Shown here: one piece after another, positions 4,095 to 36,270 of the stretch
Layout: every line of letters begins with the position of its first letter
Position numbering within the stretch: the stretch's first letter is position 1
Assembly: GCF_003334385.1 (NCBI RefSeq)
Contig: NZ_QOWN01000035.1
Source: Escherichia coli
GTDB taxonomy: Bacteria; Pseudomonadota; Gammaproteobacteria; Enterobacterales; Enterobacteriaceae
Reading direction: 5' to 3' (one strand)
DNA: 44,545 bases
Position numbers and translations under genes: made by a program
The notes under the pieces: generated by a model
The model's database searches: none
Told to the model about the DNA's origin: nothing
Seen by the model: only the letters and a program-made list of their open reading frames with translations

Positions 4095-6245
4095 TTAACG
4101 CCGCCGACGGCGTGGGGATTTCGTTTTTTCTTTCTTTTTAACTATACCTTCAGGGACTTCCGGTTGCTCTATCGGAAATACCGGTAATGCATCCAGTAGT
4201 CGCTTGCCATAATTTTTGGTCAGCAAGCGTTTGTCGTAGATAACCACTTCGCCCCAGCAACCGTGGCTTCGAATCAGTCGCCCAACCTGCTGAATCAGGT
4301 TAAACGAGGCGCTCGGCAGGCTTTGCACCTCAAACGGATAGCGGTTGAGGCTTTTCAGCCATTCCCCTTCGGTGATCACCACCGGGCTGTCGATGGGCGG
4401 AAAAGCGATTTTGTGGATATGCACCTGGCTGAGCAGATCACCTTTCAAATCAAGCCCTTCGGCAAATGACTGTAAGCCCACCAGCACGCTGCGCTCACCG
4501 TTGGCGACGCGTTTGCGGTGCAGTTCAACTAAACGGTAACGCGGCTGATCGCCCTGAACCAGCAACATCAGACGTAAATCCGTCACATAGTCGAGAAAGC
4601 GCTGCATCGCCCGTCCGCTGGCAAACAGTACCAACATACCGAGATGTTTTTTGCTCTCCACCTGCTTACGGAAAAAGGCCGCCATTTCGGCAATATGCTG
4701 CTCTTCGTTGTCGATGGAAGGCTCAACGCGCATCCGGGGAATAACAATTTTGCCCTGTTCGCAGTGGTTAAAGGGGGAATCCAGCGCCACAAAACGGTCG
4801 CCCGCTTTCTCTTTCAGACCACTCATCTCCTGCAAACGCGAAAAACTGTTCAGCGAACGCAAGGTTGCGGAGGTGACAATAATGTGCGGAATACTGCGCC
4901 ACAGCAGCCTTTCCAGCTGATCGCTGACACGTATTCCCACGCAGTGAAACCAGAGGTGTAGCTGCCCTTCGCGCTCTTCCCGCGTCGCCCATTTGGTCAC
5001 CGGTGCACCGGAAGATTGCGCCAGCGAAGCCAGCCGCCAGAGTTTGCTTTGCGCCTCGAACATCCCCAACGCGCGGTTCATCTGCAAAATCAACCGATGC
5101 AGACGTACAATGTCATGGCTGCCGGTTTTCTCACTTAAATCGTTAAGAAATAACTCCGCCAGGCCACGCAGCATCTCGGTGAGTTTTGCCAGCCGCTGGC
5201 AGATCTCCAGCACTTCATCTGGCAGTTCGCCCATCGCAAAACGGTGCTCTGCCTCCTGCCCGGCAGGCATGTAGAGATTGAGAATGTTGTTTAACGAGGC
5301 GATAAGCTCATACAACTCTTCACAATGCGCATTCAAACGTTCAGGGATCGCCAGCGGTGGGATGGTCTTCGGGCGAAACTGCTCCATGCAGGTAGCGACC
5401 AGTTTCGTGAACAAGTCCAGCTGTAGCCGATACCACGGCGCGGTGATTTCGGCGCTCATCTCAAGCGCATCCCGCGCCACATCCGGCAGGTGATGGCCTT
5501 CGTCCAGCACCAGCAGTAAATTTTTCGGGTCAGGCAATACCGCTTCGCTTTCCATCGCCGCCATCACCAGCGCATGGTTTGCCACCACCACTTCCGCTTC
5601 CTGAATCTCCCGACGAGCGACAAAAAACGGGCATTCACGATAGTAGTAACAATTGCGGTTGAGGCAGCTGGCTTTGTCGGTACTTAAACGACGCCAGAGA
5701 TCGTCATCTATAGCGATATCAGTATGATCGCGCAGACCATCCCATTTATAAGTATCGAGATCGCCCTTCAGCTTCGCACAACGTTTTTGCTCTTCCTGAT
5801 TGTTCGGCGTCAGTTCGTCGTCAAGAAACGCCAGCAGATCCTGTTGCGTGGGTTCAGTACTGGCGAGCGCCGTCAGATTACGCGGACAAACGTAGCGCCC
5901 ACGCCCAAAAGCGGCAGTGAATTTAAGATCGGGAATGATCTTTTTCAGCAGCGGTAAATCTTTGCTGTAAATCTGATCCTGCAATGCCACGTTGGCGGTA
6001 CTCACCACCAGCGTTTTTTGCTCTTCGCGGGCAATGGCGATGCCGGGAATCAAATAAGAGAGCGTTTTCCCAACGCCGGTGGGGGCTTCAATCGCCAGAT
6101 GTCGCCCTTCTTCTCCGGCCAGCGTTTTGGCGACGTCCGCAATCATCTGCCGCTGCGGCGCACGGGGAATAAAGTCGGGGATCTGTTCCTGAAGCGCCTT
6201 ATACCAGGCGGCAATTTGCGCTTTAAGCGCGGCGGTTAATGCCAT
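4095..6245 (-). CDS. dinG: ATP-dependent DNA helicase DinG, 716 aa
   Basis: ORF 4095..6380 contains the DinG sequence from the internal Met (MALTAALKAQIAAWYKALQEQIPDF...), with a helicase Walker A motif (APTGVGKT) and Fe-S cysteines; the 45-codon upstream extension is judged spurious. Confidence 0.9.
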   Translation of the reverse strand: MALTAALKAQIAAWYKALQEQIPDFIPRAPQRQMIADVAKTLAGEEGRHLAIEAPTGVGKTLSYLIPGIAIAREEQKTLVVSTANVALQDQIYSKDLPLLKKIIPDLKFTAAFGRGRYVCPRNLTALASTEPTQQDLLAFLDDELTPNNQEEQKRCAKLKGDLDTYKWDGLRDHTDIAIDDDLWRRLSTDKASCLNRNCYYYRECPFFVARREIQEAEVVVANHALVMAAMESEAVLPDPKNLLLVLDEGHHLPDVARDALEMSAEITAPWYRLQLDLFTKLVATCMEQFRPKTIPPLAIPERLNAHCEELYELIASLNNILNLYMPAGQEAEHRFAMGELPDEVLEICQRLAKLTEMLRGLAELFLNDLSEKTGSHDIVRLHRLILQMNRALGMFEAQSKLWRLASLAQSSGAPVTKWATREEREGQLHLWFHCVGIRVSDQLERLLWRSIPHIIVTSATLRSLNSFSRLQEMSGLKEKAGDRFVALDSPFNHCEQGKIVIPRMRVEPSIDNEEQHIAEMAAFFRKQVESKKHLGMLVLFASGRAMQRFLDYVTDLRLMLLVQGDQPRYRLVELHRKRVANGERSVLVGLQSFAEGLDLKGDLLSQVHIHKIAFPPIDSPVVITEGEWLKSLNRYPFEVQSLPSASFNLIQQVGRLIRSHGCWGEVVIYDKRLLTKNYGKRLLDALPVFPIEQPEVPEGIVKKKEKTKSPRRRRR

Positions 6246-6259
6246 GAGAAAACCTGAAA

Positions 6260-6279
6260 TACTGTATAAACAGCCAATA
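6260..6279. promoter_or_regulatory. LexA (SOS) box of dinG, non-canonical
   Basis: tactgtataaacagccaata is the reverse complement of the recalled dinG SOS box TATTGGCTGTTTATACAGTA (TTG-N10-CAG); it lies 15 bp upstream of the dinG start. Confidence 0.7.
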
Positions 6280-6364
6280 TTGTGGCATTTTTCGGTTTTC
6301 AGGGGTAATGGTTTTTCTGTTTCTGGAAAGCGGCTCGCAATAACCACCAACATAATGCGGTTTA

Positions 6365-6847
6365 ATGCCCGTTCGAGCACAAAGGATCCAACACGTCATG
6401 CAAGACACCATCATAAATTTCTACAGCACCAGCGATGACTACGGTGATTTTTCTAACTTTGCCGCCTGGCCCATCAAGGTTGACGGGAAAACCTGGCCCA
6501 CCTCAGAACACTATTTTCAGGCACAAAAATTCCTTGATGAAAAATACCGCGAAGAGATCCGTCGGGTTTCTTCCCCTATGGTCGCCGCACGCATGGGGCG
6601 CGATCGTTCTAAGCCTCTGCGTAAAAACTGGGAGTCGGTCAAAGAACAGGTGATGCGAAAAGCACTTCGCGCTAAATTCGAACAGCATGCAGAACTGCGT
6701 GCGCTCTTGCTGGCAACCGCGCCCGCAAAACTGGTTGAGCATACGGAAAACGATGCTTACTGGGGAGACGGTGGTCATGGTAAGGGCAAGAATCGACTGG
6801 GCTACCTTTTAATGGAGTTGCGCGAACAATTGGCTATAGAGAAGTAA
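6365..6847 (+). CDS. ybiA: NADAR/DUF1768-family N-glycosidase, 160 aa
   Basis: Full-length ORF (MPVRAQRIQHVMQDTIINFYSTSDDYGDFSNFAAWP...) matching K-12 YbiA; divergent from dinG. Confidence 0.85.
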   Translation: MPVRAQRIQHVMQDTIINFYSTSDDYGDFSNFAAWPIKVDGKTWPTSEHYFQAQKFLDEKYREEIRRVSSPMVAARMGRDRSKPLRKNWESVKEQVMRKALRAKFEQHAELRALLLATAPAKLVEHTENDAYWGDGGHGKGKNRLGYLLMELREQLAIEK

Positions 6848-6917
6848 CGTCTCGGTGGCTTATGGGCGGTAAAACAGATAAATTTTTTCCCGTGTTCTCA
6901 AATTGCTGACAAGTGCT

Positions 6918-7040
<123 letters not shown>

Positions 7041-7078
7041 TCATCAGCCTGATGCCGGGCATAGCCCGGCATAAAAGA

Positions 7079-8443
7079 TTACTGCGCAGCGGCAGGTTTA
7101 CGCGGACGGCGGCGACGTTGTTGTTCGCCTGCCGGTTTGGCATCGCCGAGGCGGCGAGACGGTTTTTCTGCAGGTTTCGCGCTTGCAGATTTTGCGCCAC
7201 CTTCCCCACGGCGTGGTTGCTGTTGACCGCGACCACCACCTTGCCCACGACCGCCGCCGCCACGTTGCTGGCGACCGTTCTGGATCGGTTCGGCTTTGAT
7301 TGACGGGTCCGGCTCATAGCCCGGAATCGCAATGCGCGGGATCTCTTTTTTCAGCAGTTTTTCGATATCACGCAGCAGTTTGTGTTCATCAACACACACC
7401 AGCGACAACGCTTCACCGGTAGCAGCCGCACGACCGGTACGCCCGATACGGTGGACATAATCTTCAGGTACGTTTGGCAGTTCATAGTTGACGACGTGCG
7501 GCAGCTCTTCAATATCCAGGCCGCGCGCAGCGATGTCAGTTGCCACCAGTACACGAATATCGCCCGATTTAAAATCAGCCAGCGCACGAGTACGCGCACC
7601 TTGCGATTTATTGCCGTGGATCGCCGCACTACGGATGCCATCTTTATTGAGCTGTTCAGCCAGATGGTTAGCGCCGTGTTTGGTACGGGTAAACACCAGC
7701 ACCTGCTGCCAGTTCCCTTTCCCAATCATGTGCGACAGCAATTCGCGTTTGCGTTTCTTATCGACAAAGTGAACGTGCTGGGTCACCTGATCAGACGCGG
7801 TATTGCGGCGTGCCACTTCGATTTCCAGCGGGTTGTGCAACAGTTTTTCCGCCAGGGCTTTAATATCGTCAGAGAAGGTCGCGGAGAATAACAGGTTCTG
7901 GCGCTTCGCAGGTAGTTTTGTTAACACGCGACGGATATCGTGGATAAAGCCCATGTCGAGCATGCGGTCAGCTTCATCGAGGACGAGGATTTCAACCTGA
8001 TCCAGCTTCACTGCATTCTGATGTTCCAGGTCCAGCAAACGTCCCGGGGTTGCCACCAGCACATCAACGCCGCCACGCAGTTTCATCATCTGCGGGTTAA
8101 TACTCACACCACCAAACACCACCAGCGAACGAATGTTCAGGTATTTGCTGTAATCACGGACGTTTTCGCCAATCTGCGCCGCCAGTTCACGGGTCGGGGT
8201 AAGAATGAGCGCACGTACCGGACGACGCCCTTTGGCGTGCGGCTGGCGAGTGATCAGGTGTTGCAACAGCGGCAGCGTAAAGCCCGCTGTTTTGCCGGTG
8301 CCGGTCTGGGCGCTAGCCATCAGGTCGCGGCCTTCCAGCACCGCAGGGATCGCCTGCTGCTGAATAGGGGTGGGTTCACGGTAACCCTGCTCGGCAACGG
8401 CGCGCAGGATATCAGGGCTTAAACCCAAAGAATCGAAAGACAT
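7079..8443 (-). CDS. rhlE: DEAD-box ATP-dependent RNA helicase RhlE, 454 aa
   Basis: Q-motif, Walker A (AQTGTGKT), DEAD box (VLDEAD), SAT motif and an arginine/glycine-rich basic C-terminal tail; matches K-12 RhlE. Confidence 0.9.
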
Positions 8444-23767: not shown

Positions 23768-25789
<2,022 letters not shown>

Positions 25790-25863: not shown

Positions 25864-25883
25864 TACTGGATAAAAAAACAGTT
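25864..25883. promoter_or_regulatory. LexA (SOS) box of uvrB
   Basis: tactggataaaaaaacagtt contains CTG-N10-CAG in the uvrB promoter region, as known for uvrB. Confidence 0.7.
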
Positions 25884-36175: not shown

Positions 36176-36270
36176 TTCATTGCTCCAGACGAATGATATG
36201 ATGCAACCATGATGTGATTGCATACCGAAATGGTACTATTGAGTATTTATCCAGTAGGTTACGATGCCAT

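Follow-up and report, generated by a model that had tools for sequence, protein, structure and literature searches.

The dinG and ybiA genes of Escherichia coli are divergent and share an intergenic spacer with a single LexA box, which raises the question of whether SOS control acting at this box stops at dinG or extends to ybiA as well. The question was studied computationally in a 44,545-nucleotide stretch of E. coli DNA (hereafter, the window) and in related genomes, in combination with published expression and promoter data. A first-pass annotation of this DNA had suggested possible SOS control of both genes. For dinG the suggestion held; for ybiA it was found to be plausible and to have some support, short of proof. 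The explanation reached here, which we hold with considerable confidence as a whole, is that an asymmetric LexA operator lies within the dinG promoter and probably represses the divergent ybiA gene too.

Materials and methods

LexA-like sites were scored with a symmetrised PWM. Eighteen LexA boxes have been tabulated (PMC3009722 Table 4), and 16 of them were used for the matrix; the dinG and uvrB boxes were left out because both lie within the window. A scan of positions 6150–6480 for consensus promoters and terminators returned no sigma-70 promoter or terminator at threshold. A relaxed hexamer scan, together with published SELEX assignments, was used in place of this threshold promoter scan. 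When positions 6000–7200 were scanned against Rfam (E ≤ 1), no match to an RNA family fell within the dinG/ybiA spacer. For the study of conservation, species-representative genomes were scanned with DinG residues 1–300, which yielded 80 Enterobacteriaceae loci; anchored column counts covered 79 species.

Organisation of the dinG/ybiA locus

Positions 5900–6900 of the window were 100% identical to many complete E. coli genomes. When the rhlE-ybiA-dinG region was compared with that of K-12 MG1655, one difference was found in 4349 bases, and the dinG/ybiA spacer was the same base for base. The length of 119 bp previously given for this spacer agrees with the distance between the annotated dinG and ybiA starts (positions 6246–6364; RefSeq annotation of identical DNA). 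The operator is flanked by a 12-nt inverted repeat, which supplies CTGAAA −35-like hexamers on both strands. The features of the locus are listed in Table 1.

Table 1. Coordinates of genes, LexA boxes and candidate promoter elements in the window
Feature	Position	Strand	Details
dinG CDS (ATP-dependent DNA helicase DinG)	4095–6245	−	ORF list and RefSeq annotation of identical DNA
dinG start codon	6245–6243	−	AGG Shine-Dalgarno at 6253–6255
12-nt inverted repeat flanking the operator	6248–6300		arms 6248–6259 GAAAACCTGAAA and 6289–6300 TTTTCGGTTTTC; 83% complementary
Candidate ybiA promoter A	6254–6283	+	−35 CTGAAA (6254–6259), 18-nt spacer formed by the LexA box, −10 TATTGT (6278–6283)
LexA operator (SOS box) of dinG	6260–6279		+ strand TACTGTATAAACAGCCAATA; dinG strand TATTGGCTGTTTATACAGTA; exact match
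Strong consensus half-site	6260–6269		TACTGTATAA; CTG at 6262–6264; 14.0 bits, among the best in the published set
Weak half-site	6270–6279		dinG strand TATTGGCTGT; TTG replacing CTG; −1.3 bits
Candidate dinG core promoter	6261–6288	−	−35 ATGCCA (6288–6283), 16-nt spacer, −10 TACAGT (6266–6261); 8/12 match
Alternative dinG promoter	6287–6279	−	extended −10 TGcCACAAT; equally conserved
Candidate ybiA promoter B	6283–6299	+	extended −10-like TGgCATTTT (6283–6291); TSS 6299
ybiA cassette	6345–7040		in variable slot between rhlE and dinG control region
−10-like hexamer CATAAT in ybiA cassette	6351–6356	+	5/6 match; 72 nt from the box
ybiA (NADAR-family N-glycosidase / guanosine-ADP-ribose hydrolase)	6365–6847, as annotated	+	
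rhlE	7079–8443	−	
Canonical uvrB LexA box	25864–25883	−	AACTGTTTTTTTATCCAGTA; 24 bits, top PWM score; upstream of uvrB (ATG near 25789)

Sequence and score of the LexA box

The 20-mer that had been pointed out as the LexA box was confirmed on the + strand at 6260–6279. It is present as a single copy in the window, with zero copies expected in shuffles, and on this strand it reads TA-CTG-N10-CAA-TA. The dinG operator at this position is already known and is a textbook SOS site. Mutagenesis and gel shift by Lewis et al. in 1992 reportedly set this 20-mer as the dinG operator, with LexA binding it directly, and Wade et al. in 2005 are said to have carried out ChIP-chip for LexA. Its earlier description as a non-canonical dinG LexA box agrees with the literature, in which the same 20-mer is the dinG SOS box (PMC3009722 Tables 4 and 7). 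The heterology index (HI) of the box is 8.6, inside the list of boxes below 14 (PMC11228462 Table 1), and dinG is included in a list of genes with a "known SOS box" (PMC6590174). Additionally, a recA promoter fitted with the dinG operator has been used in LexA binding assays (PMC5999292).

One half of the box departs from the strict SOS-box consensus TACTG(TA)5CAGTA with CTG-N10-CAG, and the box as a whole falls within the degenerate definition. Relative to the 16-mer core CTGT-N8-ACAG, the dinG box has two mismatches and is overlooked by a one-mismatch search. With the PWM, the box scored 12.7–13.1 bits and ranked second among the 44,526 positions of the window, behind the uvrB box; the window holds two SOS operators of very unequal strength. 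The score is near those of the weakest confirmed boxes, polB (13.9 bits) and dinB (16.6 bits), and by this leave-out PWM the similarity of the dinG box falls in the range of experimentally confirmed LexA boxes. The per-position probability of such a score was 5.4e-6, which corresponds to ~0.0005 occurrences expected per 119-bp spacer but ~25 per genome. Scores of 12.1–12.5 bits were also reached at two unrelated positions of the window. Because ~25 chance matches of equal score are expected per genome, the sequence match alone is not decisive.

Promoter and damage induction of dinG

An RpoD-holoenzyme SELEX peak has been reported in the spacer, and promoters were given for both the dinG and the ybiA directions (PMC3946193 Table 1). 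The candidate dinG core promoter in Table 1, ATGCCA-16-TACAGT, is exactly the dinG promoter of that study (PMC3946193). We infer the assignment of its −35 and −10 hexamers, and it is treated here as a predicted promoter, next to an extended −10 alternative. The dinG start site is absent from the TSS-seq table of PMC3415461.

The end of the LexA box was found to be 14 nt from the dinG ATG. With the predicted hexamers, the operator would be embedded in the dinG core promoter, where it would overlie the −10 TACAGT together with the greater part of the spacer; with the extended −10, it would cover positions +1 to +20. Since the operator overlaps the dinG promoter in either reading, bound LexA would exclude RNA polymerase. 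One LexA dimer would grip the perfect half TACTGTATAA together with the degenerate half, which has xTGG without the consensus C.

In every dataset examined, dinG was damage-inducible. Its expression was increased 3.2-fold by AZT, with a lexA dependence of 1.7-fold (PMC11228462), and in reporter kinetics it behaved as an "early" UV-inducible promoter with a low ED50 (PMC5999292). Bleomycin treatment of the wild type induced dinG 1.7-fold and ybiB 2.0-fold, and no induction of SOS genes was reported in the recA mutant (PMC3305319). In Salmonella, dinG was induced 10.6-fold by nalidixate, and its box lies 14 nt from the start codon (PMC8072944). Apparently, the weakness of the operator allows dinG and ybiB, the gene downstream of it, to be derepressed early and at a low damage dose, with a modest induction ratio. 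By its score range, position and conservation and by the published induction of dinG, the site at 6260–6279 is a member of the LexA-operator family.

Origin of ybiA

The slot occupied by the ybiA cassette is variable. Homology to Escherichia genomes with other or no cargo ended at 6340/6344 and was picked up again at 7041/7051. The ybiA junction was kept in 3424 of 5422 E. coli genomes (~63%), and the others broke at 6340, 6344 or 6359. Otherwise, the slot (loci L002–L009) contained a RelE/ParE toxin-antitoxin module, espX2 (in an O157:H7 strain) or nothing (in strain E69). A form of ybiA with a 287-bp 5′ deletion (6360–6646) was observed in B2 strains such as LF82 and also in E. albertii. REP-type repeats were found at 6908–7005, in the 3′ flank of ybiA inside the cassette and by the convergent rhlE end; among the REP-type Rfam matches, ES036 scored 43.3 bits, over its gathering score, and naRNA4 was under threshold.

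Intact ybiA was found beside dinG in none of the 80 Enterobacteriaceae species sampled. In these species, the usual upstream neighbour of dinG was a co-directional rhlE, and otherwise there were various genes, co-directional or distant. An orthologue of b0798 has been reported to be absent from K. pneumoniae (PMC3415461). The identity of YbiA homologues dropped from 91% (E. marmotae) straight to ~70% (64–75%; Planctomycetota and environmental metagenomes), and the nearest homologues beyond Escherichia were not from other Enterobacteriaceae. This drop in identity indicates that ybiA was acquired horizontally. The gene is specific to Escherichia.

The annotated ybiA start codon, ATG 6365, is ATT in E. 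marmotae (L087 1501–1536), where ATG 6398 is kept. Distant YbiA homologues are 146–155 aa long and covered 88–91% of the query, leaving the first ~11 residues uncovered. Because of the ATT in E. marmotae and the length of the homologues, ATG 6398 is the likelier start; it is probably the real one and would give a protein of 149 aa. With this start, the dinG/ybiA spacer would be lengthened from 119 to 152 bp, and the cassette DNA 5′ of ybiA would amount to 53 nt, as compared with 20 nt for ATG 6365.

Transcription of ybiA and its relation to the LexA box

Promoter A was the best + strand candidate in the hexamer scan (8/12), and it is the promoter given for ybiA in PMC3946193 Table 1. By TSS-seq of MG1655, a ybiA start with a 5′UTR of 66 nt was located at NC_000913.2 832239 (−), with 2 reads only (PMC3415461 Table S1). 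The published sequence from −50 to +1 of this start ends at window position 6299, that is, 20 nt past the box, and the LexA box then occupies −39 to −20. Promoter B fits this sole published ybiA start site. A sigma-54 reading of TGGCAT-N5-GGTTT was considered by eye and dropped, the −12 GC element being missing.

In a bleomycin microarray based on a single RNA set, ybiA was up 2.7-fold in the wild type, above dinG and ybiB, and it was not among the induced genes listed for the recA mutant (PMC3305319). The canonical LexA-regulon table does not contain ybiA (PMC6590174 Table 1), and neither the UV tiling-array paper nor the AZT RNA-seq paper (PMC11228462) mentions the gene in its main text. It was considered whether absence from the MEME table of the UV tiling-array study means that ybiA is not UV-induced. 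This argument fails: the absence is uninformative because a region of 100 nt taken upstream from the annotated start (6265–6364) cuts into the box. A search of the literature on b0798/b0799 and on ybiA with DNA-damaging drugs found nothing relevant.

On this evidence, we lean towards LexA control of ybiA. According to the proposed mechanism, the ybiA cassette of K-12-like E. coli would have been inserted beside the conserved block around the operator, bringing at most a −10-like hexamer. Transcription of ybiA would then most likely start at a weak promoter of the resident DNA, divergent from that of dinG and overlapping the dinG operator, and the single LexA site would probably repress both directions, as at uvrA/ssb. 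Tentatively, and with less than even confidence, this may be extended to a promoter-capture history in which ybiA arrived without a complete promoter and captured the divergent activity of an ancient LexA-controlled dinG promoter, the operator of which has been kept weak across Enterobacteriaceae.

It is unlikely, though worth serious consideration, that the LexA box serves dinG-ybiB only, that ybiA is transcribed from a LexA-insensitive promoter nearer its start codon, and that the reported induction of ybiA was array noise. The CATAAT hexamer with its five matches of six lies inside the ybiA cassette, and TGGAAA-18-CAACAT at 6324–6353 (7/12) is a candidate for a separate ybiA promoter. However, these candidates have no usable −35 or extended −10; for CATAAT, no −35 hexamer with at least three matches was found at a spacing of 15–19 nt, and no ybiA start site near 6360 is reported in PMC3415461. 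A dinG-only box would be consistent with the omission of ybiA from the canonical regulon list, with the 2 reads at 6299 and with the fact that the authors themselves call the bleomycin array a single RNA set, but it does not fit the induction of ybiA by bleomycin, which exceeded that of dinG and ybiB and is off the induced list of the recA mutant, nor the assignment of a box-overlapping promoter to ybiA by RpoD-holoenzyme SELEX. Repression of both genes from the one box is the reading preferred here.

Conservation of the box and its weak half

Each of the 80 Enterobacteriaceae species had the LexA box at a distance of 13–15 nt from the dinG ATG. In 79 species, it was contained in a near-invariant 31-nt block, AA..TG.CACAATA(g)TGGCTGTTTATACAGT. 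The conservation of this block started a few bases 5′ of the −35-like TG and stopped at the end of the box/−10, with none farther upstream. Within E. coli, the 50-mer at 6246–6295 was unchanged in 5405 of 5421 complete genomes. It is the conservation, the position and the published experiments, not the sequence score, that settle that the dinG box is real.

In the strong half, the core ATACAGT was invariant in the 79 species, and TTT(A)T was nearly so, with one A-to-G exception. In the weak half, position 3 of the box (window 6277; ~1466 in loci L006–L085) was G in 75 species, T in 3 and A in 1, and never C. It was the sole variable position of the operator, the remaining weak-half positions being invariant or nearly invariant. 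The TTG half-site is specific to Escherichia, and GTG is found in most other species. The inner CTG of the weak half and the strong half together form CTGT-N4-ACAG, which was invariant in every species aligned. The T at 6277 in Escherichia makes the palindromes AATATT (6276–6281) and CAATATTG; other genera mostly carry the palindrome GCCAC-AATA-GTGGC at the weak half.

One transition at position 3 would yield the canonical box. That C never occurs there would fit selection for operator weakness, short of proof; this absence is suggestive only, because just ~2 substitution events are visible at the position.

The pattern of conservation could also mean that the weak half and the CACAATA flank are held by a second constraint, either another DNA-binding protein or the promoter spacer/initial transcribed sequence, which we regard as rather improbable. 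The "20-bp LexA box" would then be, with equally low probability, one LexA half-site plus something else. Such a constraint would account for the weak-half positions 4–10, which match the strong half in invariance even though variation is tolerated there in canonical boxes, and for the fact that the only variable position is the one that LexA should read, the consensus C. The GCCAC-N4-GTGGC of most non-Escherichia species and the invariant inner CTGT-N4-ACAG also point in this direction. However, the former palindrome is interrupted in Escherichia (GCCACAATATTGGC), where regulation shows no sign of having been lost, and no candidate factor is known. The conserved block also extends over the same stretch as the −35 to −10 region, so a promoter and an operator are enough to explain it. 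The mutagenesis of Lewis et al. is also said to have made the whole 20-mer the operator. A LexA operator with one degenerate half, embedded in a promoter, is favoured over a half-site plus a second element.

That the 20-mer resembles a LexA box by chance and regulates nothing, as might be argued from its score and from the almost equal scores of the sites at 4179–4198 and 36237–36256, is already refuted by its fixed distance from the dinG ATG in all 80 species, where the 4179 site decays outside Escherichia, and by the damage induction of dinG published in several independent datasets.

The site at 4179–4198 (TACTGGATGCATTACCGGTA on the dinG strand; 12.1 bits) lies in the 3′ end of dinG, ~110 nt upstream of ybiB, and was considered as a ybiB operator. 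It was rejected: its score was 5 or lower in most of the 79 species, and because it is unconserved outside Escherichia, it is taken to be a chance match in coding sequence. The site at 36237–36256 (TATTGAGTATTTATCCAGTA; 12.5 bits), with CTG...CAA on the − strand, belongs to a P22-like prophage (from ~33.8 kb), where it sits between a Mnt/Arc-family repressor gene (+) and a tailspike gene. It is partly palindromic (CTAyTGrrTA) and may be a Mnt-type operator rather than a LexA site.

An insertion was observed inside the LexA box of E. coli TUM13064 (L005 616–2500). It consists of the ISL3-like ISEc53 and a neighbouring ClbS/DfsB-family gene, with common inverted repeats, and has an 8-bp target duplication, ATAAACAG, corresponding to window positions 6266–6273. 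The strong half-site remains with dinG on one side of the insertion, and the weak half lies with the −35 on the other. A split match to the box was found in ~6–8 complete genomes.

Significance

The dinG box can serve as a calibration case, namely a functional LexA site in which one half is devoid of information content. Statistically, a site of this type is like the ~25 chance matches per genome, and only position and conservation expose it. What is new for the dinG operator is the 31-nt block conserved over 80 species and the Escherichia-specific TTG.

In vitro, YbiA has hydrolase activity towards guanosine-ADP-ribose on DNA (PMC11125620). Should ybiA be under LexA control, an ADP-ribose-DNA repair activity would enter the SOS regulon in most E. 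coli. If promoter capture is true, ~63% of E. coli genomes would have put the reversal of DNA ADP-ribosylation under SOS control via one weak asymmetric operator, and a gene brought in by horizontal transfer with an incomplete promoter would have gained stress regulation by its place beside a bidirectional, repressor-controlled promoter. What remains new is the probable status of ybiA as a NADAR gene that has captured a promoter and is under SOS control, a modest extension of SOS biology.

Comparison with known systems

The operator studied here is that of K-12 dinG, with the same 20-mer at the same position and nothing that differs. It resembles the weak SOS operators of polB, dinB, uvrD and ftsK, in which a low PWM score or high HI goes together with derepression that is early or of low threshold and with a small induction ratio; dinG has been grouped with the "early" promoters of ssb, uvrD, lexA and ftsK (PMC5999292). 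In the 18-site set, dinG is the sole box without the invariant C of one CTG (PMC3009722 Table 4). The polB, dinB, uvrD and ftsK boxes, unlike that of dinG, have both halves of CTG...CAG intact, and their scores are lowered at other positions.

Bidirectional sigma-70 promoters were reportedly described by Warman et al. in 2021 as arising from sequence symmetry. Like these, the dinG/ybiA region has opposed elements around an AT-rich core, with AATATT at 6276–6281, CTGAAA on both strands and the inverted repeat. However, the ybiA TSS at 6299 does not fit a symmetric AATATT −10, and membership in this class is only putative.

The closest parallel in layout is uvrA-ssb, where one LexA box likewise lies between divergent genes and is assigned to both; uvrA and ssb are listed with the same HI value (PMC11228462 Table 1, PMC8072944). 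The two systems differ in that uvrA and ssb form an ancient, conserved neighbourhood with a stronger box (HI 6.2–7.0), whereas ybiA was inserted recently, is carried by ~63% of E. coli genomes and is putatively LexA-dependent.
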